64,000 bases of DNA from an uncultured Candidatus Saccharibacteria bacterium (lineage in GTDB: Bacteria > Patescibacteriota > Dojkabacteria > SC72): the NCBI GenBank assembly GCA_964514595.1, contig CAZEQZ010000002.1, positions 29,812 to 93,811 on the forward strand. The letters run 5' to 3'. This document shows, piece by piece, positions 6,443 through 42,611 of the stretch. The notes beneath the pieces are model-generated. The model did no database searches and was not told the origin of the DNA. It worked only from the letters and a program-made list of their open reading frames with translations. The translations under genes were made by a program, and so were the position numbers. Each line of letters begins with the position of its first letter. Position 1 is the first letter of the stretch.

Positions 6443-8110
6443 TTCCATTAATAACTCTCCCTGCTGCTGAGTAGCTAATCTGGGTATTAAATCCCTATCG
6501 GTATATATTGGCACAACTCTACTCTGAATATGTTTTCCATTATAGAAATAGTGTGAAAGTACAAGTCCTTGCCTTGTACCTATCCACATACTCTGATCAA
6601 AAAACAGATTACCCAATCCATAAAAAATAACACCATCACCGTATACCTCATATGTTTGAGGTTGATGTGCCTGAGTACCAACAACTATATCCGCCCCCAA
6701 ATCAACAGCCTTTCTAAACACTTCTTTCTGATCTGGATTACTAAGAGGTTTATAACAAATTGGATATATTACATCAGAAGCAGGATAACTGTAGCACTCT
6801 TGGAACTGAAATGTCACTATTACAACATCTGCCTCCTTCTTTGCCTTCTCAATATCACTCTTCATCTTACTCTCGGACCAAAAATTAGCACCAGACCTAC
6901 TCTCTCCTGCTAAAGCTAAACTTCTGTACACAGAATCATAGTAATTATAACCAAGGAAAGCTATGGTATTTCCCTTAACCTCTTCATACAGTATTTTACT
7001 TGCATCTTCATCATTTAAACCTCCACCAAAATATCTCATCCCTAAACTCGTGTACAACTCTATACTCTCTTTACTATACTGTGCTCCAAAATCATTGTTG
7101 TGATTTCCGGTTAATTCCACAATATCTACACCTGATTCTTTCAAAGCTTCAATATACTCTGGTCTAGAACAGAAACTCATTCCAGAGTATGACCTACAAC
7201 CAGGAACAAATGAAACTTCATTAGAAATATGTGTTAGATCTGCATTTGCAAGAAATTCCCCTATCTCCCTAGCAGGATATGCATTATCTCCAGAGTTATC
7301 AATCTTAATCGCTAATCCCCTAGACATTGCTACAACTCCTCCCATATTTATCTTAACCAATCTTTCTCTATTCCAATATCCATTATCTACATCTATATTC
7401 TTTGAAAGAACATTTAATATGAACTCATCTACACTCTTTTTTAACGTAGCATACAACCTTATGGAAATAGCTCCTTTTGAATCATCTAAATAGTATTTGT
7501 CATTAACCTCAAGGATCTTAACTTGATAGTCCAAATCCTTAAAATCTACTAACCCTATATTACTATCACTCTCCTTAAGCTTATTTACTAAATCCGGATA
7601 TGAATTCAATACCGAAGCATTAATACCGTATTCATCCTTCATGTACTCCCTATATACGGAATTAATAACAAAAACTGAATAACTACCCATTTCATCCTCA
7701 GTAACACTATCTAATAAAGAATACATATGCCCTACAGGAATTAGCTCTTTCCCAGACACCTCCCTTGCATCATCATTCTTTGTTCTAGAGAGCTCAATAT
7801 CAGCTCCCCCATCCTTTATTCTGAACCTCTTCTTCCCATTCAATTCCATTCCTTCCAAACTCTCTTGTATTGATTCCCTATACTCTTGAGAAATTGTATC
7901 ATCCAAAGAAACAGTATATGTATCATACCTAACGATGTTTTTTCTACTAAAAAGATACCCTATTGCTGATGTGAAATAGGTTCCTTCTGTTATCCATAGT
8001 ACGACAGGAAGAAGTATTAAAAAGAGTATAAAGGATAGTGGGAAAAGTGATTTCTTTTTAATATTTCTCTGCCTCCTAGTTGGTTGCGATATGTATATAT
8101 TCTGCCTCAT
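6419..8110 (-). CDS. capA: CapA/PgsA-family metallophosphatase-like protein (poly-gamma-glutamate capsule biosynthesis family), membrane-anchored
   Basis: N-terminal TM. PGA_cap-type motifs: LANADLTHISNEVSF, VDIVELTGNHNNDFG, VGTQAHQPQTYE and GLGNLFFDQ. Confidence 0.8.
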   Translation of the reverse strand: MRQNIYISQPTRRQRNIKKKSLFPLSFILFLILLPVVLWITEGTYFTSAIGYLFSRKNIVRYDTYTVSLDDTISQEYRESIQESLEGMELNGKKRFRIKDGGADIELSRTKNDDAREVSGKELIPVGHMYSLLDSVTEDEMGSYSVFVINSVYREYMKDEYGINASVLNSYPDLVNKLKESDSNIGLVDFKDLDYQVKILEVNDKYYLDDSKGAISIRLYATLKKSVDEFILNVLSKNIDVDNGYWNRERLVKINMGGVVAMSRGLAIKIDNSGDNAYPAREIGEFLANADLTHISNEVSFVPGCRSYSGMSFCSRPEYIEALKESGVDIVELTGNHNNDFGAQYSKESIELYTSLGMRYFGGGLNDEDASKILYEEVKGNTIAFLGYNYYDSVYRSLALAGESRSGANFWSESKMKSDIEKAKKEADVVIVTFQFQECYSYPASDVIYPICYKPLSNPDQKEVFRKAVDLGADIVVGTQAHQPQTYEVYGDGVIFYGLGNLFFDQSMWIGTRQGLVLSHYFYNGKHIQSRVVPIYTDRDLIPRLATQQQGELLMELLKGARD

Positions 8111-30107: not shown

Positions 30108-33100
30108 TTAAGATTTTTTCACCTTTATCCTCTCTGCAAGAATGTAGTTATCTTTTCTCACATCAATGAAAGTCCCCCTCTTGATATCAACTAACTCCCA
30201 ACCTTTCTCCGCAATATCAAGCTCATATTTACCTTTGTCTAATATAAATCTATATTTACCTTTACTGTTTGTTACTCTTTTAGCTATTACCTTATTGAAT
30301 TCCTTTTCTCGTATAGTTATAGATATGTTAGATAGTGGCTTACCCTTCTCATCTACAACTTTTCCATATTTACCTTTCTTATTAAAGAAAGAGTTTATTA
30401 AAATATATAACGGGATTATATACAGAAGAAGAAATATTAGATTATTACTATTCCTGTGTGTGTAGTATGTGTACGAGGATATGGTCACTCCCACAATAAA
30501 TATGAAGACATTGAGTATTGATAGTGCTTTAACTAATATATTCTTGATTCTGTGAAATACCATTTGACCACCTAGAATCTCTTTAGGATCTATAGGAACA
30601 GCAATTTGTATATCCGTATCTTCTGACGATATATCTAGGCTACCAGTATATACATTCTGTAATGGATAATCATGTGGACCCTTTACATATATACTTGGGT
30701 ATTCATATCCAGACTTAGATACTTTTAACAAATACTTTCCCTTTCCTAAGCTAGCAGAGAATCTCCCATTGATATCTGTAACAGCTGTATCCACCAACCT
30801 ATCCTTAGTATTAAATACTCTAACTAATGCCATATGGACAGGTTCTTTAGTATTAGAATCATATACAAACCCGTAATTAACCCTCTTCTTTCTAAAGCCT
30901 AAGGAACTCAAAATTAACATCATAAATTGCGATACCATATATCCCAACTGTGTTAACCCACCAAAGAGAGCTGTAGCTCCTACCGTTACAGTTACTACAT
31001 TTGCTGTTGTGGAAATAGTCCGAAGCTCCCTCTCTTCAAGATTGGTCACAACATCTGTATTTATCAATATGCCTAAAGTATTATCCTTTATAAAGTTTGT
31101 AATTTTCTGAATAGTTGATTGCTTTGGAACAGCCTTCTCTGATTTCGACTCCTCTTTTTTCTCCTCCACGACAGGTTTATCTACTTTAGTATCTTTCGGT
31201 TCTTCATAGTAGAATCCTAGTCCTCCTGTACCTCTTAACCCATCAGCAACCCAATAATTTATTCCACCTATTACTACCTTAGACACCGTAACTGATGACT
31301 CCCCTACATTCTTTTTACTCGGAAACTCCCCTGTAAATTGTACTGCTCCCGAACACTTCTCCTTTACTTCCTCTAACTGAGAGGCACCTGGGCAAAGCAG
31401 AAACGCATTCGTATCATCTGCATTAACATACATTGTGAACGGATTAGAGACACCATGATTCTCTTGAAGCTTTATTACTGTCTTCCTCTCTTCTGGAGCA
31501 CTTAGTATTATAGCGTCCTGCCAATCCCTATCCTGATTAAATAAAACAGGAATATCCGCTACTAGGAGATCCCCTTTCTTTATCCTAACATTCCTTTCCC
31601 CGAATTGAGCATTATTACGTACTGTTAAATCTATATTCTCTTGAGTAGCCAGGGTAGCACGAAGTGTACTGTCAATATTTCTCAATATAGCCCCTGTACC
31701 GATGAAGATTGGATCACTCCAACCAGTTTGTACTAGAGATTTATTTCTAGCCTTAACTGAAAACCCATACTGAACTCCTGTCTCCAATCCATTTACTATT
31801 ACTCCATTAGCAGATCCAAAATTAGAGAAAGTTCCCCATTTTTCCTGAACAGTTAATGTCCCTAATTCAAAATCTAAATACCTACCACTATTGTTTTCTC
31901 TAATTAATAACTCTGTATCTGCTGGATTATCTAAAGTATTAATATATACCCTAGCACTATCACTTGACACAGCATTCACCCTAACCATGGATGGGCTCTG
32001 AGCGAAGGTATATATTGATTGATTCGTTGACCAGGTTGTAGCAACATTCTTTTTATTTAAACTTCTTACTTTAAATTCGTACTCAGTATTAGGAAGCAAT
32101 CCATCAATATCGATACTGGAAGAAAATGGAGTAATGGAGGAGGAAGTCATTAATATTTTCAGATCATTATTGTAATATCTATTACTCTTATTCTCCACTA
32201 TCTGTAGGCTATCCCTACTACTTCCAGATATTGCTAATCTAACAGAGGATGCTCCTGTTGCAGTTACTGAGGATATCCTAGAAGGTTCTGAGTGCGTAGA
32301 GAAAAGAAATGTATTTGAATAATCACTTTCAGATATATTACTGTACACTTTCACCTTCCTAGCATATTCTGTATTAGAGGAGAGATTTCCCTCTATACAC
32401 TGGTTCATACTATTAACAGAGCAGGTGATCAACAGATTGTTATTGGAATCATAGATCTTATATCCTACCTTAGAAGCATTGCTATCCGTTACTCTCCAAG
32501 TAAATGAACTGGCTGTTGTTGTGAGAGCTGAGAGTAGTGTCGGAGGATATAGTTTAGTTGCAACTGTAACTGATTGAGAAAATTCACTTTCTATATCCGC
32601 TTCATTTCTAGATTTAACTTTGAATCTGTATTCCGTACCTACTTCCAACCCAACAACTTCCTTTCCATTCTCCGACCCGAACTGAGTATATGTTCCCCAT
32701 ACCTCCTCATCTACCAAAGCTCCTGTAGAGATATCTACATACTTGTTCGTACTTTCTTCCATAATTGCATATTGTGTACCTACAGGGTTATTATCCTGAC
32801 TTAAAGCAACAGTTATACTGTTTATAGTTCGTGCAATTAATACTGGTACATTTGGTATATCTGATTTAGTATATGTCCCTATATACTCACTAAAGGTAGT
32901 TTCTATACCATTATAGTTTCTAGATTTCACCCTGAAGAAATAAAGGGTATTAGGTTCTAAATTAGTTACTGCTGTACTTTCTGATTGAGTCCATACGGAA
33001 ATTCCCTCATTACAATCTAATTCCTCACATTCAAAAAATACGCCTGAATTACCGTCATTTATATTATTTACCCCCTCTGCTGTTAAAGAGACTGAAGAAG

Positions 33101-35534
33101 ATGAAAGAGGAGACAAAGATATGGATGGAACTTCTGCCAAAGTATATATTGTTATACTCTCAGAATATTCGGTTTCAACACCATCTCCATTTCTGCCCTT
33201 CACTCTGAAAGTATATGCGGTATTAAAATCCAAATTAGTTACCTCATCACTACTGGTAGATATCCATTCATTAATACCTGTGTCACATCCTGTATTCTCA
33301 CAATCAAAATATATTTCCGACCCATTTATCTGACCGAGGGCAGACAGATTTATCGTTGAAACAGTTTTCTCTCCTCCTTCTAGTATTGTTGGTGGCGAGA
33401 GTAGTGTATACACATATGCAAGTTCAGAAGGGGCACTTTCTCCTGAGGAATTGTATGCAGTAATTTTTCTAGAATATTGAGTATTCTCATCAAGACCAGT
33501 CTCATCACAATATGTTAAGTCCTCTCCAAGGCAGTATTTAATTAAATTGTCTTCTTCATCATACAGAGCAAATCCTTCTTCATTGTTAGCATTATCTGAG
33601 AAGTGCCATCTGATGACAGAGGTTGACAAAGCTTCAGGTGTCCCCATTGTTGGGACTTCAGGAGCCGTAGAATAAGTTAGAGATACACCTTCTAATACAG
33701 GAGTGTCTTGTCCACTATTAGTATCAAAAGATATTTTGTAATAAAACTCAGAAGTTTGTAGATCTAATTCTTCCAGAATGATCTCTACATTTTCACCAAG
33801 GATTAGCTCATCATCACCATCTTCTATTCCAGAGGAATCAAACCACATTAAAGAATCCGTACTAAATTGAATAGAAGCTGAAGTCCCCACAGGTTTAGAA
33901 GATAGAGTATAAGAGAAGGACTGTATAAAAACATTATTTTCTTCCGAAATCAAATCAGACGATTGCAAAGTCATTGAGTTGGCGTATGCAGGGCTCACTT
34001 GTGAACTTGCGACAGGGGTGGAATTACCATTAAAAGAAGTCGTGTATTCTATACGAACCCTACCATCACCTCCGGCAACTCCTCGTGTAGATGGAACACC
34101 AGCAGATGCAGTAGTAGAAGACTCACTTAAACTTATTTGCCCTCCTACTATCTTAATAGCACCACCTGCGCCGGTTCCTCCCCCAGAACCCTTGGATTCA
34201 GGTTCCGCAGTAATGTTTCCTCCATTACTTTTTATTGAGCCCAACACATTTATATCAGTCCCCAAAATAAATATTATTCCTCCTCCACGACTCCCACTCG
34301 TACCATCATAATAAGATCCCGATAACCCTTGACCTGCACCACCTCCACCTCCACCTCCTCCGAAATTAAGCCTAGACAAATCAGCTTCTCCCGCGCTTTT
34401 ACCACCACCCCCTCCTCCAGCCGAGTATCTCTTATCTCCGTAATGCAAAGCCCCCGCTCCCCCGGCTCCACTGGCCGAAGATGTTCCCCCATCCCCAGAG
34501 GTCACCCTACTATATCCCCCCACTCCTGGGGTTCCATAACCACCGCCCCCTCCTCCTCCACCTAAACCATCACAGTCATTTGTTGTACATTTTGTATTTG
34601 TAGAACCACCACCCCCTCCTCCAACTGATCCGTAATCATTACTTCCAGCTCCTCCTGCCCTGTTAGATCCTCCGCCACCACCACCACTCCAACTTCCTGC
34701 ATACCCTACTGCACCAGTAGCTCCTCCCTTCCCATCGTTTCCAGATACTGGGAAATATCCTTCTCCAGGAGTAGTATTACATGCTCCTACAGCACACTTA
34801 TTTCCTCCTCTATATCCCAAAGCAGAAACATCTATATTTCCGTTTACATTAACTACCCCAGAAGCTTCAAACGAGAAAACTCCTCCTTTTGTACCATCCC
34901 ATGCATCAGGATACCAATTTACCCCAGCATTAACTGTTACATCACTATACTGGGGAATTCTCTGAACCATTATTTTTTGTGTAGTACCATTGTATCCATT
35001 TGTCAGATTCCTATCTAAAGAGAGAATTTCGCCTACTACATTCTCTACGTATGCAGTTTCATACTGTCCGACATTTGAATGATCTGCTTGTGTACCTTGT
35101 AAGTTTATTATCAATATTTCATCCCCTATCGACAACCCCGTAGCTACAGAAGATAGGGTTATGCTATCACTCCCAGCCACCACATTTTCTGTTACAGAGA
35201 AATTAACTGCATCTCCATCCACTCTCCCAACACAGCTCCCAGTATTAATGTTTGTATTTACAGAAACAGTACAAATTCCATCATTCCCTGTTCCAAAACT
35301 AACTTTACTAACTTTAACAGTTCCCTCCCCAATATCATAATTAGATGAATTGACCTGATCTATTAAATCTAATGTGCTGAAATCCTCTACTACGGTATGT
35401 GCAACACTTTGTATGGTTCTTGCAAGATATAAATAAACAGCTATAGGTAAAAATGTGATTACTGTAAATACTGAAAGAATAACTATAAACCTCCTCCAAT
35501 TAAAATTCCCTAAGAGTGTTTTCTTTTTCTTCAT
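30108..35534 (-). CDS. giant (1808 aa) cell-surface protein: signal anchor, Gly-rich beta region, about 8 FN3-like repeats, then TM helices interleaved with two CarboxypepD_reg-like domains
   Basis: N-terminal TM. Poly-Gly runs at aa ~230–560 (GGGGGGS, GLGGGGGGGGYGTPG). Repeated ~90-aa FN3-like units (e.g. ...YFDCENTGCDTGINEWISTSSDEVTNLDFNTAYTFRVKGRNGDGVETEYSESITIYTLAEVP). Hydrophobic helices at aa ~1480–1520 and ~1660–1720. Two transthyretin-like segments (GFVYDSNTKEPVHMALVRVF...; GKVVDEKGKPLSNISITIRE...). Confidence 0.7.
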   Translation of the reverse strand: MKKKKTLLGNFNWRRFIVILSVFTVITFLPIAVYLYLARTIQSVAHTVVEDFSTLDLIDQVNSSNYDIGEGTVKVSKVSFGTGNDGICTVSVNTNINTGSCVGRVDGDAVNFSVTENVVAGSDSITLSSVATGLSIGDEILIINLQGTQADHSNVGQYETAYVENVVGEILSLDRNLTNGYNGTTQKIMVQRIPQYSDVTVNAGVNWYPDAWDGTKGGVFSFEASGVVNVNGNIDVSALGYRGGNKCAVGACNTTPGEGYFPVSGNDGKGGATGAVGYAGSWSGGGGGGSNRAGGAGSNDYGSVGGGGGGSTNTKCTTNDCDGLGGGGGGGGYGTPGVGGYSRVTSGDGGTSSASGAGGAGALHYGDKRYSAGGGGGGKSAGEADLSRLNFGGGGGGGGAGQGLSGSYYDGTSGSRGGGIIFILGTDINVLGSIKSNGGNITAEPESKGSGGGTGAGGAIKIVGGQISLSESSTTASAGVPSTRGVAGGDGRVRIEYTTSFNGNSTPVASSQVSPAYANSMTLQSSDLISEENNVFIQSFSYTLSSKPVGTSASIQFSTDSLMWFDSSGIEDGDDELILGENVEIILEELDLQTSEFYYKISFDTNSGQDTPVLEGVSLTYSTAPEVPTMGTPEALSTSVIRWHFSDNANNEEGFALYDEEDNLIKYCLGEDLTYCDETGLDENTQYSRKITAYNSSGESAPSELAYVYTLLSPPTILEGGEKTVSTINLSALGQINGSEIYFDCENTGCDTGINEWISTSSDEVTNLDFNTAYTFRVKGRNGDGVETEYSESITIYTLAEVPSISLSPLSSSSVSLTAEGVNNINDGNSGVFFECEELDCNEGISVWTQSESTAVTNLEPNTLYFFRVKSRNYNGIETTFSEYIGTYTKSDIPNVPVLIARTINSITVALSQDNNPVGTQYAIMEESTNKYVDISTGALVDEEVWGTYTQFGSENGKEVVGLEVGTEYRFKVKSRNEADIESEFSQSVTVATKLYPPTLLSALTTTASSFTWRVTDSNASKVGYKIYDSNNNLLITCSVNSMNQCIEGNLSSNTEYARKVKVYSNISESDYSNTFLFSTHSEPSRISSVTATGASSVRLAISGSSRDSLQIVENKSNRYYNNDLKILMTSSSITPFSSSIDIDGLLPNTEYEFKVRSLNKKNVATTWSTNQSIYTFAQSPSMVRVNAVSSDSARVYINTLDNPADTELLIRENNSGRYLDFELGTLTVQEKWGTFSNFGSANGVIVNGLETGVQYGFSVKARNKSLVQTGWSDPIFIGTGAILRNIDSTLRATLATQENIDLTVRNNAQFGERNVRIKKGDLLVADIPVLFNQDRDWQDAIILSAPEERKTVIKLQENHGVSNPFTMYVNADDTNAFLLCPGASQLEEVKEKCSGAVQFTGEFPSKKNVGESSVTVSKVVIGGINYWVADGLRGTGGLGFYYEEPKDTKVDKPVVEEKKEESKSEKAVPKQSTIQKITNFIKDNTLGILINTDVVTNLEERELRTISTTANVVTVTVGATALFGGLTQLGYMVSQFMMLILSSLGFRKKRVNYGFVYDSNTKEPVHMALVRVFNTKDRLVDTAVTDINGRFSASLGKGKYLLKVSKSGYEYPSIYVKGPHDYPLQNVYTGSLDISSEDTDIQIAVPIDPKEILGGQMVFHRIKNILVKALSILNVFIFIVGVTISSYTYYTHRNSNNLIFLLLYIIPLYILINSFFNKKGKYGKVVDEKGKPLSNISITIREKEFNKVIAKRVTNSKGKYRFILDKGKYELDIAEKGWELVDIKRGTFIDVRKDNYILAERIKVKKS

Positions 35535-35671
35535 TAATATGGCAGTTATATTACTTCTTACATTTTACATAGATGAGTGTGTCATGACAAGCGTTTTGGG
35601 AATTTTGATGGATGGTGGGATGTGTTGGAGAGCCTGAAACTTAAAACCTGCATTGTTTTAACAAGCTATCT

Positions 35672-36289
35672 CTAAAAAAGCCCCCATTTATTCATATCCT
35701 CAGACACTCCCATTATTACAGAAATCTTCTCAGGAAGAATATCCTTATTCAATGCTAACACCGTTAATCTTAGATGACCTTCCAACACAACAAATTCGTT
35801 TCCATCAGAAACAAGAATCATTTCGTCAAAAGACTTATTTTTCTTAAAATACTCTGATGCTTCTAAGAGATTATCATACGGCACATCATAGACCATCTCA
35901 TTATTTCTAATTTTGCGCACAGCATCTTTAGACAATCTAGAACCATTTGTTAACTCTACCCAATAATCATAATTAATAAACAAAACTTCGTTTATGAGAA
36001 AATCCTTAGAGACCTCTACACGAAACCATTTGATATTTTGTGGGAATCCACCAAAGAGACCTTTTCTAGAAACATATTTTCTTGTTTCTTCAAGAATTTC
36101 TAGTCTTATATCATTCTCTTGGGAGTTGTTGAGATCAGGATTTTGAATTATAGAATTAGTTACTCCCAATTTTTCAATTGCCATCTTAATCTTTTCAGAA
36201 AATCTTTCAGACTTAAGTTCTCCTTTTAAGAATACGCTTATTACTTCAGCTTCAGAGATTGGTTTAAGATCTAATCCAGATATATTCAT
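35672..36289 (-). CDS. hypothetical protein
   Basis: 205-aa ORF directly downstream of tRNA-Val(UAC). No family recognised. Confidence 0.35.
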   Translation of the reverse strand: MNISGLDLKPISEAEVISVFLKGELKSERFSEKIKMAIEKLGVTNSIIQNPDLNNSQENDIRLEILEETRKYVSRKGLFGGFPQNIKWFRVEVSKDFLINEVLFINYDYWVELTNGSRLSKDAVRKIRNNEMVYDVPYDNLLEASEYFKKNKSFDEMILVSDGNEFVVLEGHLRLTVLALNKDILPEKISVIMGVSEDMNKWGLF

Positions 36290-36316
36290 AGGAAATTATA
36301 CAGGAAATTCAAAAAA

Positions 36317-36393
36317 TGGTGGGCGACACAGGATTCGAACCTGTGACCCTCTCGGTGTAAACGAGATGCTCTGACCAGCTGAGCTAGTCGCCC
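36317..36393 (-). tRNA. tRNA-Val (anticodon UAC), CCA encoded
   Basis: GGGCGAC-TA-GCTC-AGCTGGTCA-GAGC-A-TCTCG-TTTACAC-CGAGA-GGGTC-ACAGG-TTCGAAT-CCTGT-GTCGCCC-A-CCA. Perfect cloverleaf. Confidence 0.9.
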
Positions 36394-36400
36394 ATATATA

Positions 36401-36487
36401 TGCCGAGGACAGGAGTTGAACCTGCACGAGAGTATAAGTCTCACTACCACCTCAAGGTAGCGTGTCTGCCAATTCCACCACCTCGGC
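36401..36487 (-). tRNA. tRNA-Leu (anticodon GAG), type II with a long variable arm
   Basis: GCCGAGG ... CTACC-TTGAGGT-GGTAG, a long variable arm, T arm GCAGG-TTCAACT-CCTGT, acceptor 3' strand CCTCGGC, discriminator A. Confidence 0.85.
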
Positions 36488-36539
36488 ACATTATACAGTG
36501 ATTATTCTAACAAATTAAGCCTTTTTATCCAATACTTAA

Positions 36540-37397
36540 CTATTCAAACTTCATTGAATCCAAGACCCTTTGAGCTATCTGTTGAGATTCTACAACAGAA
36601 GAATCAATATAATACAGAATATTAAAAATATATTTATCCATAATCACAATATAACCCTTTGAAGAGCCTCCTATCCCTACAATAGTATACTCTAAGACAT
36701 TTTTTCCCCATTTGATAGAATCTTTATGGGATTCTGTACCATACTCATTATCTGCAGGATAAAACACCGAGAAAATATCTATATACTTTTTTTTCACTTG
36801 CTCGTAATTTTCGTTCCCATCGTTTTCAAATATATAAATGTCAAATACATGTTCTTTGACACAACCCTGCCCACATCCGAAATTGTCTGGTATTCGAGAA
36901 GGAAAAAATTCTATTCGGACATGATGTTCTAAATCAGAATGAACCTTTCCATACCAAGATATATCAAAAGCATCCGGCGCATAATCTGCATGCTTCACAT
37001 CCCAATATGAATATATATTTTGAGCACTATCTATCCCTGGCATGCTCAGCATCTTATATGTTGGAATTTCAACACCAAAACCATACTGAGGCAAAGAGAA
37101 AAGTCCCCATCCACCATTATCTAAACGAGCTTCATTCGTACACACAGTGCACTCCTCTGGATCACTATCCTCAACATTATTATCCCCCGTTACGTTCTCT
37201 TGCTTATTATCTCTATCACCAATTACATCCTCTAAAAGATTAATCCCATTATCTTTCAAAACAAAATATGTTAATCCTAAGAGAGAAAAAGCCAACAAAA
37301 TTATCAACGCATATACCCCTACCTTTTGTGGTTTCTTAGTCTCTGGCATCTCCTCGGAAACAGGAACCACGATATCATTTTGTAGTGATTCTTCCAT
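36540..37397 (-). CDS. membrane-anchored/secreted hypothetical protein with CxxC pairs
   Basis: The ORF track extends to 37595, but the first 66 codons look non-coding. The start was placed at the ATG at 37397 (MEESLQ...), which precedes a TM anchor (VGVYALIILLAFSLLGLTYFVL). ECTVCTNE and CGQGC motifs are present. Confidence 0.4.
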   Translation of the reverse strand: MEESLQNDIVVPVSEEMPETKKPQKVGVYALIILLAFSLLGLTYFVLKDNGINLLEDVIGDRDNKQENVTGDNNVEDSDPEECTVCTNEARLDNGGWGLFSLPQYGFGVEIPTYKMLSMPGIDSAQNIYSYWDVKHADYAPDAFDISWYGKVHSDLEHHVRIEFFPSRIPDNFGCGQGCVKEHVFDIYIFENDGNENYEQVKKKYIDIFSVFYPADNEYGTESHKDSIKWGKNVLEYTIVGIGGSSKGYIVIMDKYIFNILYYIDSSVVESQQIAQRVLDSMKFE

Positions 37398-37454
37398 ATG
37401 TGAAAAAAGATAAAATAGATATACATATATTAATACACTTTCATTATACTTTGT

Positions 37455-37630
37455 AAATAGACCCTTAGGGTCTGACACTCCTCCGTCCCCCAAATATCTT
37501 TGGCCTGTACTATCTTTTTGCAAAATAAGAAGGTTCTTTTGGATGTTGCAACAACAAAAATATGTACAAAAACAAGACGATTTCCTCTTGTACAAAGGTT
37601 TTTACGGGGACAGGCCGGGGTCTGACCCTA
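37455..37630. repeat. GC-rich palindromic repeat copies (GGGTCTGACCC family) in the divergent promoter region upstream of eno
   Basis: GACCCTTAGGGTCTGACAC at about 37459–37478 and GGGGACAGGCCGGGGTCTGACCC at 37605–37627. The perfect palindrome GGGTC-T-GACCC stands out against the AT-rich surroundings. The same 23-mer family occurs inside tsaD. Confidence 0.5.
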
Positions 37631-37697
37631 TGTATAACCCAATTGCAAAAATATCCCTTTTGATGCAAAATGTACATATAACATTAGGCAATACAAC

Positions 37698-38969
37698 ATG
37701 AAGATCAAAAACATACAAGCCAGAGAAATATTAGATTCCAGAGGTATACCAACAATATCTACTGAGATAGAGCTATGGAGCGGGGAAACAGGAGTCGCAG
37801 AAGTACCGTCCGGAGCATCTACAGGAAAAACAGAAGTTTTAGAAATGAGAGATGAAGACAACGAAAGACACAATGGAAAAGGTGTACTTAAAGCAGTAGA
37901 GATAATTAATACCACTATTAGAGATCTTGTAGTGAACAAAGAATTCTCTAGCCAAAGAGAGTTTGATGAACTATTAATAAATGAAGATGCAACTGAATTA
38001 AAAACCAAATTAGGAGGAAACACAATACTCTCCTGCTCTATGGCATTTGCCAGAGCAGTATCTAACGAATTTGGTCTAAATCTGTACGAATATATTGGGA
38101 TGATATATTGGGACAAGGAGTATTCTACAAGTAACTTCAAAATGCCTACCCCCCTTATACTTGTAATGGAAGGTGCAAAACATGGAAACTGGGCTACTGA
38201 CATACAAGAGTATATGTTAGCTCCTAAGATAGAAAGATTTGGATCTTTTAGTGAAGCATTCAGAGTTACAACAGAGGTATTTCATAATATTCATGACATT
38301 CTTGATACCAAGGGATATTCAGTTGGGCTTGGACTGGAGGGTGCATTCGCACCAAAAGAGATAGGAAGTAACAAGGAAGCTTTTGAAATAATAATGGAGG
38401 GGTTGAAGAAATCAGGTTTTAATCCAGGACAGGATTTTGACATTGCCTTAGATCTAGCAAGTTCCGAATTCTATGATGAGCAAAAAGATATATATGTATT
38501 AAAAAGCGAGAACAAAGAATTGAGCAAGGATGAATGGATATCACTACAAAGAGAATGGTATAAAGAATTTCCAGTATCTTCCATAGAGGACCCTCTACAT
38601 CAGGATGATTGGAATGGATGGAGTGAATTTACAAGAGAGTTTGGAGAAAAATATCAGATTGTTGGAGATGACCTACTAACTACGAATGTTAAAAGGATAC
38701 AGAGAGCTATTGAAGAGAAGGCCGTCAATAGTGTACTCATAAAATTAAACCAAATAGGAACAGTATCAGAGACGCTGGACGCTATACGATTGACGGTAGA
38801 CAATGGGATGAGTGCTGTTATTTCACACAGGAGTGGAGAAACAAATGACGACTTTATTGCTGATTTAGTTGTAGCTACACCTGCAAATCAGTGTAAATTT
38901 GGAGGTCCTAGTAGAGGTGAGAGGCTGGCAAAATATAACAGATTATTAGATATTGAACAAAATATATAA
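37698..38969 (+). CDS. eno: enolase (phosphopyruvate hydratase)
   Basis: SRGIPTISTEIELWSGETGVAEVPSGASTGKTEVLEMRD and SHRSGETNDDFIADLVVA. Enolase signature along the full length. Confidence 0.95.
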   Translation: MKIKNIQAREILDSRGIPTISTEIELWSGETGVAEVPSGASTGKTEVLEMRDEDNERHNGKGVLKAVEIINTTIRDLVVNKEFSSQREFDELLINEDATELKTKLGGNTILSCSMAFARAVSNEFGLNLYEYIGMIYWDKEYSTSNFKMPTPLILVMEGAKHGNWATDIQEYMLAPKIERFGSFSEAFRVTTEVFHNIHDILDTKGYSVGLGLEGAFAPKEIGSNKEAFEIIMEGLKKSGFNPGQDFDIALDLASSEFYDEQKDIYVLKSENKELSKDEWISLQREWYKEFPVSSIEDPLHQDDWNGWSEFTREFGEKYQIVGDDLLTTNVKRIQRAIEEKAVNSVLIKLNQIGTVSETLDAIRLTVDNGMSAVISHRSGETNDDFIADLVVATPANQCKFGGPSRGERLAKYNRLLDIEQNI

Positions 38970-39047
38970 CAAAGGGAATAGGCGAGCGTGGAATAGATAA
39001 AAATCTTTTAGACTTCTGAAGTCTAATTATTCCACACTCACCGTTAG

Positions 39048-39121
39048 CGCTCCTGAAAGGATTCGAACCTCTATACAGTCATTCAAAGGCTGACTGGCTT
39101 TTCCATTTAAGCTACAGGAGC
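39048..39121 (-). tRNA. tRNA with an atypical 9-nt anticodon loop (GCCUUUGAA); identity unresolved (Gln-UUG or Lys-UUU), possible pseudo-tRNA
   Basis: GCTCCTG-TA-GCTT-AAATGGAA-AAGC-C-AGTCA-GCCTTTGAA-TGACT-GTAT-AGAGG-TTCGAAT-CCTTT-CAGGAGC-G. All other arms are canonical, including the T-loop TTCGAAT. Discriminator is G73. No CCA. Confidence 0.55.
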
Positions 39122-39167
39122 ATAAAATACCAGAATTATATACTATAAGCTTCTAAAATTACAGTTC

Positions 39168-40271
39168 CTAAAGAGACAATCTTGGCTCCCTATCTATTTC
39201 TTTAATTTCATTTTTGTCTGTAATATATTCTTTCCTCTGTATTTTGTAATATGCAACTATCCCAACCATTCCTGCATTATCTCCTCTGTATTCTTTTTTA
39301 GGATATATATATTCCAAACCGTATGATCTAGCAATATTGCCTATAAATCTGACCATTTCCTCACTGTTAAATACCCCACCTCCCACAAATATAGCTTTTA
39401 TTTCAGGATACTGTTCTATAGCCATATCTAATTTTATTTTAATAGACTCATTCACAGCGTCCAAAAATCCTCTACAGAAATCATATATCCATTCTTTCTC
39501 TGGCTTCCCTTCCTCTCTTAGTTCCTTAACCTTATACAGTGCTGCTGTTTTCAAACCCGAATAGCTAAAGTTAAGATCTTTGGAATTCTTCATTGGTATA
39601 GGGAAGACAATTTCCCCTGATTTTCCTTTCTTTGCAAATTCGGTAATTACAGGACCACCTGGATATCCCAAATTCAACATCCTCGCAACCTTATCAAATG
39701 CCTCGCCCACTGCATCATCCAATGTCTCCCCAAGTTTCTTGTACTCCCCAGTCTGTTGAACATGTACCAGCTCAGTGTGCTTACCAGATACCAAAAGACC
39801 AATGGCCGGAAATAGGGACAGACCCTGGTACGACCCCTGTGGTTTCAAAATATTATCGCTATGCAATTTCTTCTGGTCCAGGGACAGACCAGGGTCAGAC
39901 CCCAGAAAACCTGAGAGTAAGTGCCCTTCCATATGGTTTATAGGTACAAATGGAAGACCATTTTCAATTGCCAAATCCTTAGCAAAGTTCAAACCTATCT
40001 CCAGATCAATCGCTAACCCTGGACCATACGTACATGCTATATAATCAACATCCTCGATTTTAACCTTTGCTCTCTTAAGTGCCTTCTCATATACGATTGG
40101 TATGTTTTTTTCATGCTCTCTCCTGGCTATATCTGGCACTACTCCACCCCACTGAGCATGTATTTCCACCTGAGAGGATACCTCAGAAGAAAGGATCTTA
40201 TTCCCTCTTAAGACTGCTACAGATGTATCATCACAACTTGTATCTATTGCTAATATTAGTAGGTTATTCAT
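39168..40271 (-). CDS. tsaD: tRNA N6-adenosine threonylcarbamoyltransferase TsaD (Kae1/Gcp family), carrying a ~25-aa in-frame insertion
   Basis: ILAIDTSCDDTSVAVL, HMEGHLLSGF and LLVSGKHTELVHV. Between the HMEGH region and LLVSG lies an extra segment GSDPGLSLDQKKLHSDNILKPQGSYQGLSLFP. It is encoded by GC-rich repeat DNA. Confidence 0.9.
   Translation of the reverse strand: MNNLLILAIDTSCDDTSVAVLRGNKILSSEVSSQVEIHAQWGGVVPDIARREHEKNIPIVYEKALKRAKVKIEDVDYIACTYGPGLAIDLEIGLNFAKDLAIENGLPFVPINHMEGHLLSGFLGSDPGLSLDQKKLHSDNILKPQGSYQGLSLFPAIGLLVSGKHTELVHVQQTGEYKKLGETLDDAVGEAFDKVARMLNLGYPGGPVITEFAKKGKSGEIVFPIPMKNSKDLNFSYSGLKTAALYKVKELREEGKPEKEWIYDFCRGFLDAVNESIKIKLDMAIEQYPEIKAIFVGGGVFNSEEMVRFIGNIARSYGLEYIYPKKEYRGDNAGMVGIVAYYKIQRKEYITDKNEIKEIDREPRLSL
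39815..39903. repeat. three copies of the GGGACAGACC/GGGTCAGACCC palindromic repeat inside the tsaD coding region
   Basis: GGGACAGACCCTGG (39815), GGGACAGACCAGGG (39881) and GGGTCAGACCCCAG (39893). The 23-mer GGGACAGACCAGGGTCAGACCCC matches the copy upstream of eno. It is translated as PGLSL/QGLSL in tsaD. Confidence 0.5.
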
Positions 40272-41343
40272 ATATCTCTATGCTCCTCTCATTAAGTGAT
40301 ACATACTTAATATTTACCTTGTATATGGGAATATTCATATTGTCACACAGTGCAGATATCTCTTGGTAGAATTTATCTGCCCACTCTATCAATACAATGT
40401 TTCCACTCTCTAAATGTTGGATTAATCCTGAGGTCTCTAATTCATGATCCTCTAATTTCCATGTATCCATATGTGCGAGGATCTGTCCCTTGTTATATGT
40501 ATATTCATTAATTATGGTATATGTCGGTGAATTTACGATTTCTTTAACTCCAAGTTGTTCAGCTACTCCTTTTGCAAATTGTGTTTTTCCTGCTCCTAGT
40601 TCTCCACTTAGTGCTACTACAACCGGGATATCTTCTGACAGATATTTTTTAGCAAATTCTTTTGCTAAATCAATAGTTTCTTGGGTTGTTTTTGTATTCC
40701 TTTCTTCCACCTTTTTATTTTTAATTAAGGCATTTTCAAATTGAAGCTTACCCTGCCTTAGGATACTTAATTGGTTCATTGTGGTGTCTAATACTGTAGA
40801 GGGTTGATTTTTAGGTAGTTGGCCCGCATCTAGGAAAAGATCTATCAGTTTAAAACTTTTCTTAGGAAGATCTTTCATTAACTGATCTATGTTGTATGGA
40901 GGTGATTTGTATGACACATTAGCTGATGTTGCTGTTATCGGTTTCCCGAATTGTTTAATTAATTCTAATGTAAATTCATAATCTGGATATCTTACTCCCA
41001 CAGCTCCCTGTATGGATACTACTGGAGGAACTAGATTACCCTTACTCATTGATATTACAGTTATTGGTCCAGGGAGATAGTTTTTGTATATGTTGTCTGC
41101 CATTTCATTAATCTCTACATACTCCTCTGCCATCTTCCTGTCTGCTACAGCTATGGATATGGGTTTGGATCCTCTGAGTGTTTTATATTCCATTATCTTT
41201 TCCAATGCTTTTGGATTAGTTGCATCTCCTCCTAGTCCATAGCAAGTTTCTGTCGGGTATACAATTAATCCACCGTTTTTTAATGTTTCAACGGCTTTTT
41301 TTATAGCAAGATCTTTATCTTTTTTAATATCAATTCTGTTCAT
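40264..41343 (-). CDS. tsaC-tsaE: fused L-threonylcarbamoyladenylate synthase (TsaC/Sua5/YrdC domain) and TsaE (YjeE P-loop ATPase)
   Basis: N-terminal YrdC-type fold (VYPTETCYGLGGDATNPKALEKI...). The C-terminal ~140 aa carry the TsaE Walker A ALSGELGAGKTQFAKGVAEQLGV, then SPTYTIINEY and IEWADKF. Confidence 0.8.
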   Translation of the reverse strand: MNRIDIKKDKDLAIKKAVETLKNGGLIVYPTETCYGLGGDATNPKALEKIMEYKTLRGSKPISIAVADRKMAEEYVEINEMADNIYKNYLPGPITVISMSKGNLVPPVVSIQGAVGVRYPDYEFTLELIKQFGKPITATSANVSYKSPPYNIDQLMKDLPKKSFKLIDLFLDAGQLPKNQPSTVLDTTMNQLSILRQGKLQFENALIKNKKVEERNTKTTQETIDLAKEFAKKYLSEDIPVVVALSGELGAGKTQFAKGVAEQLGVKEIVNSPTYTIINEYTYNKGQILAHMDTWKLEDHELETSGLIQHLESGNIVLIEWADKFYQEISALCDNMNIPIYKVNIKYVSLNERSIEIYE

Positions 41344-41419
41344 GGTATAATGTATATTATACTAGGAATATATGTAAATGCCCATATTCCAATACTTTTA
41401 AATTGTTAACATATATATT

Positions 41420-41740
41420 ATGCCATTACTACATTTAACTGACGAGAATTTTCAAGAAGAAATTAAGAATTATGAAGGAGTTGCTTTAGTAGATTTTTGG
41501 GCACCATGGTGTGGTCCTTGTCAGATGGTTGGACCATCTATTGAGGAATTAGCTACAGAGATGGAGGGGAAGGCTAAGGTTGGGAAAATTAATGTTGACG
41601 AAGAAGCTACTACGGCACAAGAGTACTACATAATGAGCATACCTGCGGTGTATGTATTCAAGAATGGAGAAGTTGTTGAGAAGCTGATTGGAGCTATGGA
41701 CAAGAATAGCTACAAAGAAGCTATTGAGAAGAATTTATAG
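41420..41740 (+). CDS. trxA: thioredoxin
   Basis: WAPWCGPCQM active site. 106 aa. Confidence 0.9.
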   Translation: MPLLHLTDENFQEEIKNYEGVALVDFWAPWCGPCQMVGPSIEELATEMEGKAKVGKINVDEEATTAQEYYIMSIPAVYVFKNGEVVEKLIGAMDKNSYKEAIEKNL

Positions 41741-42611
41741 TTTCTCTCTGTATAATGGTTGGATTAATTCCTTCCTTTTGTTGATTCTTTGAAGCTTCTT
41801 TTGCCTCATACATTAATTGATCAGCTTCATTGAATTTTCTTCTTAATATGTCTCGAACTAATTTTGTTCTTTCCTTAATATCTATACCTGTTCGACTCCC
41901 CAATTCTTGAAGTATGGAGTTCACGCTAAAACCTAATATGCCTGCACTATAGTTAAGATTAGATGTTTGTGTTTCATTTAAACGATCTACTATGGTATCC
42001 GTTATGTCTTCGTTTGATACTGTGAATACAGAGAATTCATCTCCGCCCCACCTAGCTATTTCATCATACGATCTGAATACATTTTTAAGATATTGGGCCA
42101 TTTGGAGTATGTATTCATCACCAATACTATGACCTTGTTCATCATTTATCTTCTTAAGATTATTTAAATCAAATACCCCAAAAGTTATGTATCTATCATT
42201 CATTTCTTCCCTTTGTATCATATCTGCTAATTTCTCAATAGCTATATTCCATCCCAATCTATTATCTACCTCTGTCAATGGATCTACTGTCATACTATTT
42301 TGAAGATCAATCACCCTATCTATCTCCCTACTAAAGTATAGGTTCAGAGGGGTGCCCTGTTTGTTGAAGGATACTCTTGCTCCCTTGAAGTCTTCTTGCT
42401 CTAATGGAATATATGTAATTAATTCTTCTGGATTTTCTGTTTCCTTGATCTGATTAGATTTTCTTTGAATATTTTCTAGCTGTTCTTCAGGTATGTATCT
42501 TGGATCATACTCAACATAGTAGATTTTTTCTCCAGAGGGATCTGTAGCGGAGTACATCATATTAGTTGGTATTTTTTCTGTAGTGGTGTCGTTGGATAGT
42601 TCTATGTTCAT
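41721..42611 (-). CDS. GGDEF-domain protein (diguanylate cyclase)
   Basis: RYITFGVFDLNNLKKINDEQGHSIGDEYI ... RWGGDEFSVFT with an intact GGDEF motif. Confidence 0.8.
   Translation of the reverse strand: MNIELSNDTTTEKIPTNMMYSATDPSGEKIYYVEYDPRYIPEEQLENIQRKSNQIKETENPEELITYIPLEQEDFKGARVSFNKQGTPLNLYFSREIDRVIDLQNSMTVDPLTEVDNRLGWNIAIEKLADMIQREEMNDRYITFGVFDLNNLKKINDEQGHSIGDEYILQMAQYLKNVFRSYDEIARWGGDEFSVFTVSNEDITDTIVDRLNETQTSNLNYSAGILGFSVNSILQELGSRTGIDIKERTKLVRDILRRKFNEADQLMYEAKEASKNQQKEGINPTIIQRETINSSQ

Follow-up and report, generated by a model that had tools for sequence, protein, structure and literature searches.

The extra loop in the TsaD protein of this Dojkabacteria genome is most probably (a probability of about 0.8) encoded by a doublet of REP units that belongs to the genome's own REP/RAYT system. 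The host gene, tsaD (tRNA N6-adenosine threonylcarbamoyltransferase), lies on the minus strand at positions 39168–40271 of the window, the 64,000-nucleotide stretch of DNA that was analyzed here, and is an intact ORF of 367 aa. The features of the TsaD/Kae1/Qri7 family are present, including the Pfam TsaD domain, the HMEGH metal-binding motif, and the SG(G/K)HT strand. Pfam PF00814 TsaD matches the ORF with an E value of 2.2e-72, as two stretches located on either side of the insert, and the catalytic motifs are invariant in alignment A1. The peptide from HMEGH (NHMEGH) to SGKHT reads LLSGFLGSDPGLSLDQKKLHSDNILKPQGSYQGLSLFPAIGLLV. When the protein was compared with Escherichia coli TsaD (4ydu) by phmmer, residues 6–127 and 154–340 of the query were aligned (E = 5e-64), and thus residues 128–153 have no E. 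coli counterpart; these 26 residues agree well with the earlier note, which had counted about 24 extra residues between HMEGH and LLVSG(G/K)HT. In E. coli TsaD, LEDNP is followed directly by FPFVALLVSGGHT.

The AlphaFold model of TsaD, built from alignment A1, has a mean pLDDT of 81 and a pTM of 0.77. Residues 125–151 form the sole long segment of low confidence (pLDDT < 50), located between helix 113–122, which bears HMEGH, and strand 156–162. The structure model that had been proposed to place the insert thus locates it between a confident helix and a confident strand, and the insert may be a flexible excursion, predicted to be disordered, at a permissive site of the fold.

The DNA encoding this segment is composed of two REP units and an AT-rich spacer, all on the minus strand. 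REP unit 1, the 5′ unit in tsaD (39881–39902; coding strand GGGTCTGACCCTGGTCTGTCCC), covers codons 124–131 and is read as GSDPGLS(L), the 44-nt spacer (39837–39880) is read as (L)DQKKLHSDNILKPQ, and REP unit 2, the 3′ unit (39815–39836; coding strand GGGTCGTACCAGGGTCTGTCCC), is read as GSYQGLS(L). Three motif copies had been described around an AT-rich core, and all three were found, GGGACAGACC at 39815 and 39881 and GGGTCAGACC at 39892. Each unit consists of two 11-mers of the form GGGWCWGWCCC. The element had been called palindromic, which holds for the core of the 11-mer but not beyond it: the two 22-nt units are direct repeats in the same orientation. Their start positions are separated by exactly 66 nt (22 codons), which gives rise to the peptide repeat GSDPGLSL/GSYQGLSL. 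The GC richness of the insert was likewise borne out, with 68% GC in both units compared with 36% in the spacer and 39% in the tsaD gene. The units also use codons that are rare in the window, namely CTG (5% of Leu codons), GAC (15% of Asp codons), and GGG (19% of Gly codons).

The repeat is present outside tsaD as well. The 22-mer GGGACAGACCAGGGTCAGACCC (39881–39902) recurs with three mismatches at 37607–37628 on the plus strand (GGGACAGGCCGGGGTCTGACCC), an extragenic copy upstream of eno that the earlier note had already recognized, compared with no match to the 22-mer in 100 shuffles; in total, the 22-mer has two matches within the window and none in the shuffles. A degenerate copy, GGGTCTGACACTCCTCCGTCCC (37468–37489, plus strand), with four mismatches to the tsaD unit, also lies upstream of eno, and the two copies form an inverted pair, 117 nt apart, in a divergent intergenic region. 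The copy at 37607–37628 has an orthologous copy in L006, and copies similar to it are located upstream of eno in L033, L126, L177, and L180. Across approximately 590 kb, comprising the window and related loci, the exact 11-mer was found 13 times and the double 11-mer with at most four mismatches 16 times, the latter compared with none in the shuffles. These matches fall in tsaD loops, at a second tsaD site of L006, and in intergenic DNA close by, and a further two 11-mers stand alone. A metagenome scan for GGGACAGRYNNGGGWCWGACCC gave at least 118 loci. In the roughly 82 kb attributed to the window's genome (the window and L184/L185), there are three REP loci with six units; related Dojkabacteria bear REP copies at other loci as well (L133). 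A scan of viral sequences for a strict double 11-mer returned only the unrelated GGGACWGTCCC repeats of GC-rich phages, and a literature search with four 11-mers returned only primers.

The 22-mer flanks a RAYT gene in contigs attributed to the same genome. This gene (P0148; L184, 6284–6715) is an intact ORF of 143 aa with the HUH motif NHFHL and the GRY motif, and its name in JGI is "REP element-mobilizing transposase RayT." It is bracketed by an upstream REP, GGGTCTGACCCCGGTCTGTCCC (L184, 6222–6243), and a downstream REP (L184, 6728–6749) that is the exact reverse complement of GGGTCTGACCCCGGTCTGTCCC, so that the order of the locus is RNase Y, REP, RAYT, REP, Tgt, and QueA. Of the 22 positions of the RAYT-flanking REP, unit 1 of tsaD shares 21 and unit 2 shares 18, and it is the upstream-type REP that both units match, on one strand. 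Similarly, the eno copy at 37607–37628 agrees with the RAYT-downstream REP at 20 of 22 positions, and a direct comparison of the degenerate copy at 37468–37489 with the RAYT-upstream REP gives agreement at 17 of 22. The RAYT contigs are tied to the window by shared contig statistics and samples rather than by read-through sequence: P0148 and the window TsaD (P0001) agree in the number of contigs (six), in the length of the longest contig (760,270 nt), and in their four sources, and samples SRR10872661 and ERZ27252300 contain both. The downstream REP of this pair encodes the C-terminal residues of Tgt, GLTPVCPH, together with the stop codon. The translation of a REP, here in contigs attributed to the same genome, is thus not unique to tsaD.

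Among the metagenome matches listed, the 22-mer brackets a gene of about 144 aa in L168, L174, L159, and L161, and in all four the upstream 22-mer is the reverse complement of the downstream one; the L078 contig ends within the gene, and the downstream copy alone is visible. The ~144-aa protein carries the HUH motif MDNHFHL and a GRY tyrosine motif. These proteins match Pfam Y1_Tnp (PF01797) with E values of 4e-10 to 6e-13, and their sole NCBIfam match is NF047646, the REP-associated tyrosine transposase, at 78 to 80 bits against a cut-off of 80. A homologue search yielded about 50 clusters of RAYT relatives of 143 to 147 aa, several of which are named Candidatus Dojkabacteria. Overall, the sequence comparisons support the assignment of the repeat to a REP family with a cognate RAYT and of the tsaD insert to a REP doublet. 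The GTAG/CGTC tag was absent at all REP copies read, which are flanked by cattaGGG..., cagtgGGG..., and ttaaGGG....

To place the loop among its relatives, about 8,000 TsaD homologues were retrieved, and the best 120, which are Dojkabacteria/WS6-like, were examined. An unrelated loop of variable length, the NSKG loop (LLxNSKGxGLVEG...LFP), is present at this position in 104 of the 120, implying that the site is a generally permissive loop. Some NSKG loops are as long as the loop of the window TsaD, and the DNA that encodes them contains no REP motif. Orthologues with a loop of non-repeat DNA, which had been named as evidence that would speak against the insertion, do therefore exist, but they do not undo the REP identity of the window's insert. 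It could be argued from the same variability, which extends to nearly all Dojkabacteria TsaDs, that the segment is an ordinary lineage-specific loop, with a GC richness that stems from its Gly/Pro/Leu/Ser content and a coincidental likeness to the 22-mer. This is scarcely credible in light of the 21/22 match to the RAYT-flanking REP, the zero matches expected from shuffles, the codons that are rare for the genome, and the lack of the motif in loops of the NSKG type.

Turning to the kind of element, the earlier note had left the choice between MITE and REP, and of the two only REP stands, as the same 22-mer flanks RAYT. A MITE has terminal inverted repeats of 15 to 30 bp and a target-site duplication, whereas the terminal units in tsaD are direct and no convincing target-site duplication was seen at the element. 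The sole similarity between its flanks (TTTCTG/TTTCCG) falls on conserved Phe-Pro codons, and L001 lacks it. Nor was an NSKG remnant found beside the element, and hence either replacement of a previous loop or insertion into a short loop must be assumed. No second copy of the tsaD spacer, or of the spacer of any other lineage, was found in the DNA examined (the window and related loci), and the 88-nt REP–spacer–REP composite was accordingly rejected as a multi-copy unit.

A structured RNA was considered and rejected as the identity of the tsaD element. Its single-strand folding is no better than that of shuffled sequence (z of −0.8 to −1.1), the folds of the element in four TsaD lineages have z values of −0.7 to −2.0, and Rfam (E ≤ 1, positions 35000–42000) gives only three tRNAs. 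A REPIN, as reported by Bertels and Rainey (2011), consists of two inverted REPs that form a long hairpin. The tsaD doublet resembles a REPIN in having two REP units, a short spacer, and an association with RAYT, and the pair upstream of eno (37468–37489/37607–37628) shares the inverted arrangement. However, the tsaD doublet differs from it in its direct units, the lack of a significant hairpin, and the lack of a second spacer copy. With direct units and folding no better than in shuffles, the classical REPIN hairpin is absent from tsaD.

The closest relatives of the window TsaD (P0002–P0005 and P0007) are 83 to 88% identical to it outside the loop and have a short loop, GTDPHVNFP or GSDPSGYFP, with 21 residues between H and SGKHT compared with 44 in the window TsaD. 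They keep a solo 11-mer, GGGACAGACCC or GGGTCAGACCC, exactly at the start of unit 1. The implicit claim that the insert is lineage-specific did not hold, as three other TsaD lineages, 69 to 74% identical to the window protein, share the 22 + 44 + 22 structure at the same codon and with the same 66-nt spacing: P0006 (L001, 73% identity), P0009 (L003–L005 and L018), and P0040 (L002 and L040). Their loop peptides are GSDPRLPP...GSDMGLSL, GSGPGLTQ...GSVPALTL, and GSGEGQTP...GPDLGQTL, respectively, and the G/C core of the 11-mer is kept across the lineages despite these differing peptides. In register, the spacer of L001 is identical to that of the window at 25 of 44 positions and the spacer of L003 at 18 to 19 of 44. 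In L003, the second unit is placed six codons nearer SGKHT, where it contributes to the coding of the conserved PALxLL strand. The half-sites of L002 run as the reverse complement, with GGACAGACC (read GQT) in place of GGTCTGTCC (read GLS), and the spacer of this lineage resembles the other spacers in neither orientation; the L002 element was thus rejected as an inversion of the window's, since only its terminal units fit better when reversed.

These relatives bear on a recent insertion private to the window's genome, after its split from the relatives with short loops. The 21 residues of those relatives and the near identity of unit 1 to the RAYT-flanking REP (21/22) would fit such an event. 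However, the structure recurs in L001 at the identical codon, with a spacer that is alike in register, so that the elements of the window and L001 are homologous along their whole length, and L003 and L002 bear the element as well, all of which makes a recent private insertion unlikely. Moreover, the solo 11-mer at the unit 1 start is less easily explained by a virgin site than by a deletion or by a REP landing site that already existed; between deletion across direct units and a pre-existing landing site, the solo 11-mers of the closest relatives fit either. Because the element occupies one common site in lineages that are divergent, the insertion is better regarded as old or recurrent than as recent.

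When 119 TsaDs, stripped of the loop, were arranged in a neighbor-joining tree, the REP-bearing lineages fell in separate places. The window protein groups with the short forms (bootstrap of 100%), P0006 with P0020 (100%), and P0009 with P0028 (98%), while all REP-related lineages appear as one clade in 1% of the replicates of this tree of one 350-aa gene. For every full-doublet lineage, the sister bears a loop that is different and not of the NSKG type. The sisters P0012, P0020, and P0028, whose non-NSKG loops were classed as "other," show no REP trace in their DNA, and the idea that these loops are decayed REPs was rejected on that ground. The distribution may reflect one old insertion followed by losses, with a misleading tree, or the transfer of alleles, or repeated use of the site.

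The persistence of the element also raises the question of whether the tsaD units are selected for a role at the DNA level, with the protein loop as a by-product. Such a role could be the binding of RAYT or another protein, an internal or antisense promoter, or an operator paired with the eno copies. The 11-mer core kept in four TsaD lineages with differing peptides (GLSL, GQTL, and ALTL) is compatible with this, and so are the L002 half-sites, which retain the register although they are reverse-complemented. In addition, the extragenic 22-mer is repeatedly followed, after 8 to 14 nt, by the −35-like hexamer of a promoter (eno, tRNA, and others) in several species, and in tsaD a TTGCAT occurs 14 nt after unit 1, the same layout as at eno. 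However, TTGCAT is not conserved in L003 (TCGCTT), and a promoter scan of the region was at chance, with 11 sites compared with 12.4 in shuffles; for these two reasons, an internal promoter or operator is only a minor rival. The L003 eno promoter has no REP, most Dojkabacteria tsaD genes are entirely without the motif, and in the closest relatives most of the element is gone while the gene is kept, which leaves selection for a DNA-level role doubtful. Two known operator types, the CggR operator and the 11-bp direct repeats of PhoB/OmpR, do not fit in spacing or sequence.

A related suggestion, of low probability, is that the doublet is maintained in dual use, with RAYT/REP recruited as a regulatory or recombination signal at the DNA level, or that the site is a hotspot repeatedly targeted by RAYT. 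It draws on the persistence of the G/C core and the 66-nt register in lineages that the TsaD tree does not unite in a clade, on the reverse-complemented half-sites of one of these lineages, and on the fixed distance at which the 22-mer precedes the promoters of eno and tRNAs in several species. If true, minimal genomes can accommodate a RAYT/REP signal within the coding sequence of an essential gene.

The preferred reading remains that of a REP doublet translated as a loop. The analysis shows the identity of the units as REPs, their association with RAYT, the unbroken frame, the disorder in the structure prediction, and the occurrence of the element in several lineages, and the course of events may be pictured as follows. 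The genome would carry one RAYT gene, for a 143-aa Y1 HUH tyrosine transposase bracketed by an inverted pair of 22-nt REPs. A REP–spacer–REP segment, presumably mobilized by RAYT, would have come to fill the loop-coding stretch between the HMEGH helix and the LLVSGKHT strand. This segment would be translated as a Gly/Ser/Pro/Leu-rich loop, GSDPGLSL...GSYQGLSL, that is predicted to be disordered and is probably harmless; the sequence of gains and losses sketched above is likewise conjectural. We infer the translation of the insert from ORF continuity alone. Three properties account for the unbroken tsaD frame. First, the 66-nt spacing of 22 codons puts both units in the same frame. Second, the REP 22-mer is stop-free in five of six reading frames, with a TGA in one frame of the upstream-type strand by direct reading. 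Third, the loop position is length-variable in TsaD throughout the Dojkabacteria. The frame-preserving insertion of a REP-type element, read as a loop, that the earlier note had proposed thus gains support from the intact ORF and the match to the RAYT-flanking REP.

Among known palindromic repeats, the Rickettsia palindromic elements (RPEs) are 100 to 150 bp long and are not known to have a dedicated transposase. The tsaD doublet resembles the RPEs as a selfish palindromic repeat tolerated in frame in essential genes, where it adds a surface peptide, but its sequence is unrelated and a cognate transposase gene is identifiable here. The IS200/IS605 elements have a transposase of the same Pfam family (PF01797). 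Unlike them, the RAYT gene described here keeps a syntenic place in the chromosome (RNase Y–RAYT–Tgt–QueA), is bordered by 22-nt REPs where an insertion sequence would have IS ends, and has the RAYT model as its best NCBIfam match.

The closest likeness in the literature is found in the work of Di Nocera, De Gregorio, and Rocco (2013), who described REPs within genes of several species, with in-frame dimers that encode 20 to 30 aa (PMC3733652). In the same source, RAYT together with REP units is named a REPtron, and RPEs are described in frame in ORFs likely encoding functional proteins (PMC3733652). As in a REPtron, a short GC-rich repeat with a palindromic core accompanies a single Y1/HUH transposase gene in an inverted REP pair, other copies are intergenic and near gene ends, and some dimers of 20 to 30 aa lie within ORFs (PMC3733652). 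REPtron units are normally extragenic, and the tsaD copies depart from this by lying inside an intact ORF, a known minority case (PMC3733652). Compared with the intragenic REPs described there (PMC3733652), the GTAG/CGTC tag is lacking, the unit is a tandem of two 11-mers, the intragenic dimer is direct, one site is common to several species, the host is a Dojkabacteria (Patescibacteria) genome of about 0.76 Mb, and few copies are seen in the DNA sampled. REP dimers in frame within genes are thus already known from other bacteria, and the tsaD case is a clear new example.

The example shows that REP-type repeats can join a universal essential enzyme next to its metal-binding motif, and it marks the TsaD loop as a natural insertion-tolerant site. 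The full doublet, the apparently inverted doublet, and the solo 11-mer provide a dated series of REP states in genes from which gain, retention, and loss can be followed. For annotation, GC-rich protein loops of low confidence in AT-rich genomes may be repeat-derived. Targeted searches of the available literature returned no description of a REP/RAYT system in Patescibacteria (CPR), and the present data place one in the Dojkabacteria, a lineage of the Patescibacteria, in a genome of this small size.

Upstream of tsaD, the window encodes a 359-aa fusion of a Sua5/YrdC (TsaC) domain with a TsaE domain (40264-41343, minus strand), the gene for which overlaps tsaD by 8 nt; the related loci for which gene calls were inspected have the same fusion. 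A tRNA-Lys(TTT) gene (39047-39121, minus strand) separates tsaD from the convergent eno. No tRNA gene intervenes in L003, which carries the full REP doublet in tsaD, or in the short-loop relatives L006 and L187; in all three, the 3' ends of the two genes overlap.

Within tsaD, L006 and L187 have another solo 11-mer, GGGACAGACCC (L006 4362-4372; L187 940-950), at a second site where KEGTDP takes the place of 12 residues, LREEGKPEKEWI, of the window TsaD. In L006, the two tsaD sites have the 16-mer GGGACAGACCCCYATG in common. An 11-mer-like sequence is also present in the DNA encoding the TsaE domain (..NKGQILAHMD..), at the orthologous position in the window (40479-40489, minus strand), L006 (3463), and L187 (41). 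It reads GGGACAGATCC in the window and is an exact GGGACAGACCC in L187, is restricted to the clade of the window, and leaves the length of the domain unchanged. This sequence could be a chance occurrence or a REP-templated patch.

REP-encoded residues are likewise observed at the RAYT locus attributed to the genome of the window (L184), where the REP downstream of the RAYT gene extends into the 3' end of tgt, a convergent gene (6722-6749), and encodes the C-terminal Tgt residues GLTPVCPH*. An identical Tgt tail is found in L168, a metagenome locus with a 22-mer-bracketed RAYT gene.

Outside genes, pattern matching placed a -35-like hexamer 8-14 nt downstream of the 22-mer, followed by 17 nt and a -10-like hexamer. 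This layout was matched in the window at 37607-37671 and 37440-37489 and in other loci (L033 18440-18760, L038 11160-11260, L039 17890-17990, and the RAYT-bearing L159 and L161), and as a pattern it is repeated in several species. Examples of the promoter-like hexamers matched downstream of the 22-mer are TTGCAA..CAAAAT for eno and TTTACA..ATTAAT for the gene divergent from it in the window, and TTGAGT..TAGAAT for tRNA-Leu/Val clusters of other Dojkabacteria.

Among the matches listed from the metagenome scan (L066-L183), the REP 11-mers are arranged in tandem in contigs of 30-74% GC, with two to about six per array (for example, L112 10830-10915, L087 463-500, L169, L147, and L137), often directly 3' of stop codons and in some cases forming a hairpin and T-run. 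In the GC-rich L087, a distant RAYT homolog lies 48 nt from the array. The REP type built of these 11-mers seems to be widespread across phyla. L172 (900-2540; contig 41% GC) holds 16 copies of related 11-mers (GGGACTGTCCC, GGGTCTGTCCC, and GGGACTGACCC) grouped in four similar clusters. The GC-rich IMG/VR phage contigs (L058-L065) contain palindromic GGGACWGTCCC 11-mers in tandem, with more GGGAC/GTCCC words nearby; this motif is distinct from the tsaD/RAYT REP. Downstream of tsaD in L038 (11040-11450) are three repeats of a module that consists, in order, of AAGATGAACTTTTTCTGAA, a GC-rich palindrome, and ATTGAGTTTAAGTTTG; the palindrome is either a REP-type sequence or the distinct AGGCCTAGGCCAGGCCT.

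Elsewhere in the window, the Gly-rich repetitive region of a 1808-aa ORF (30108-35534, minus strand) accounts for both the local rise in GC content (41% at 34-36 kb) and the direct-repeat family D1 (34341-34703).
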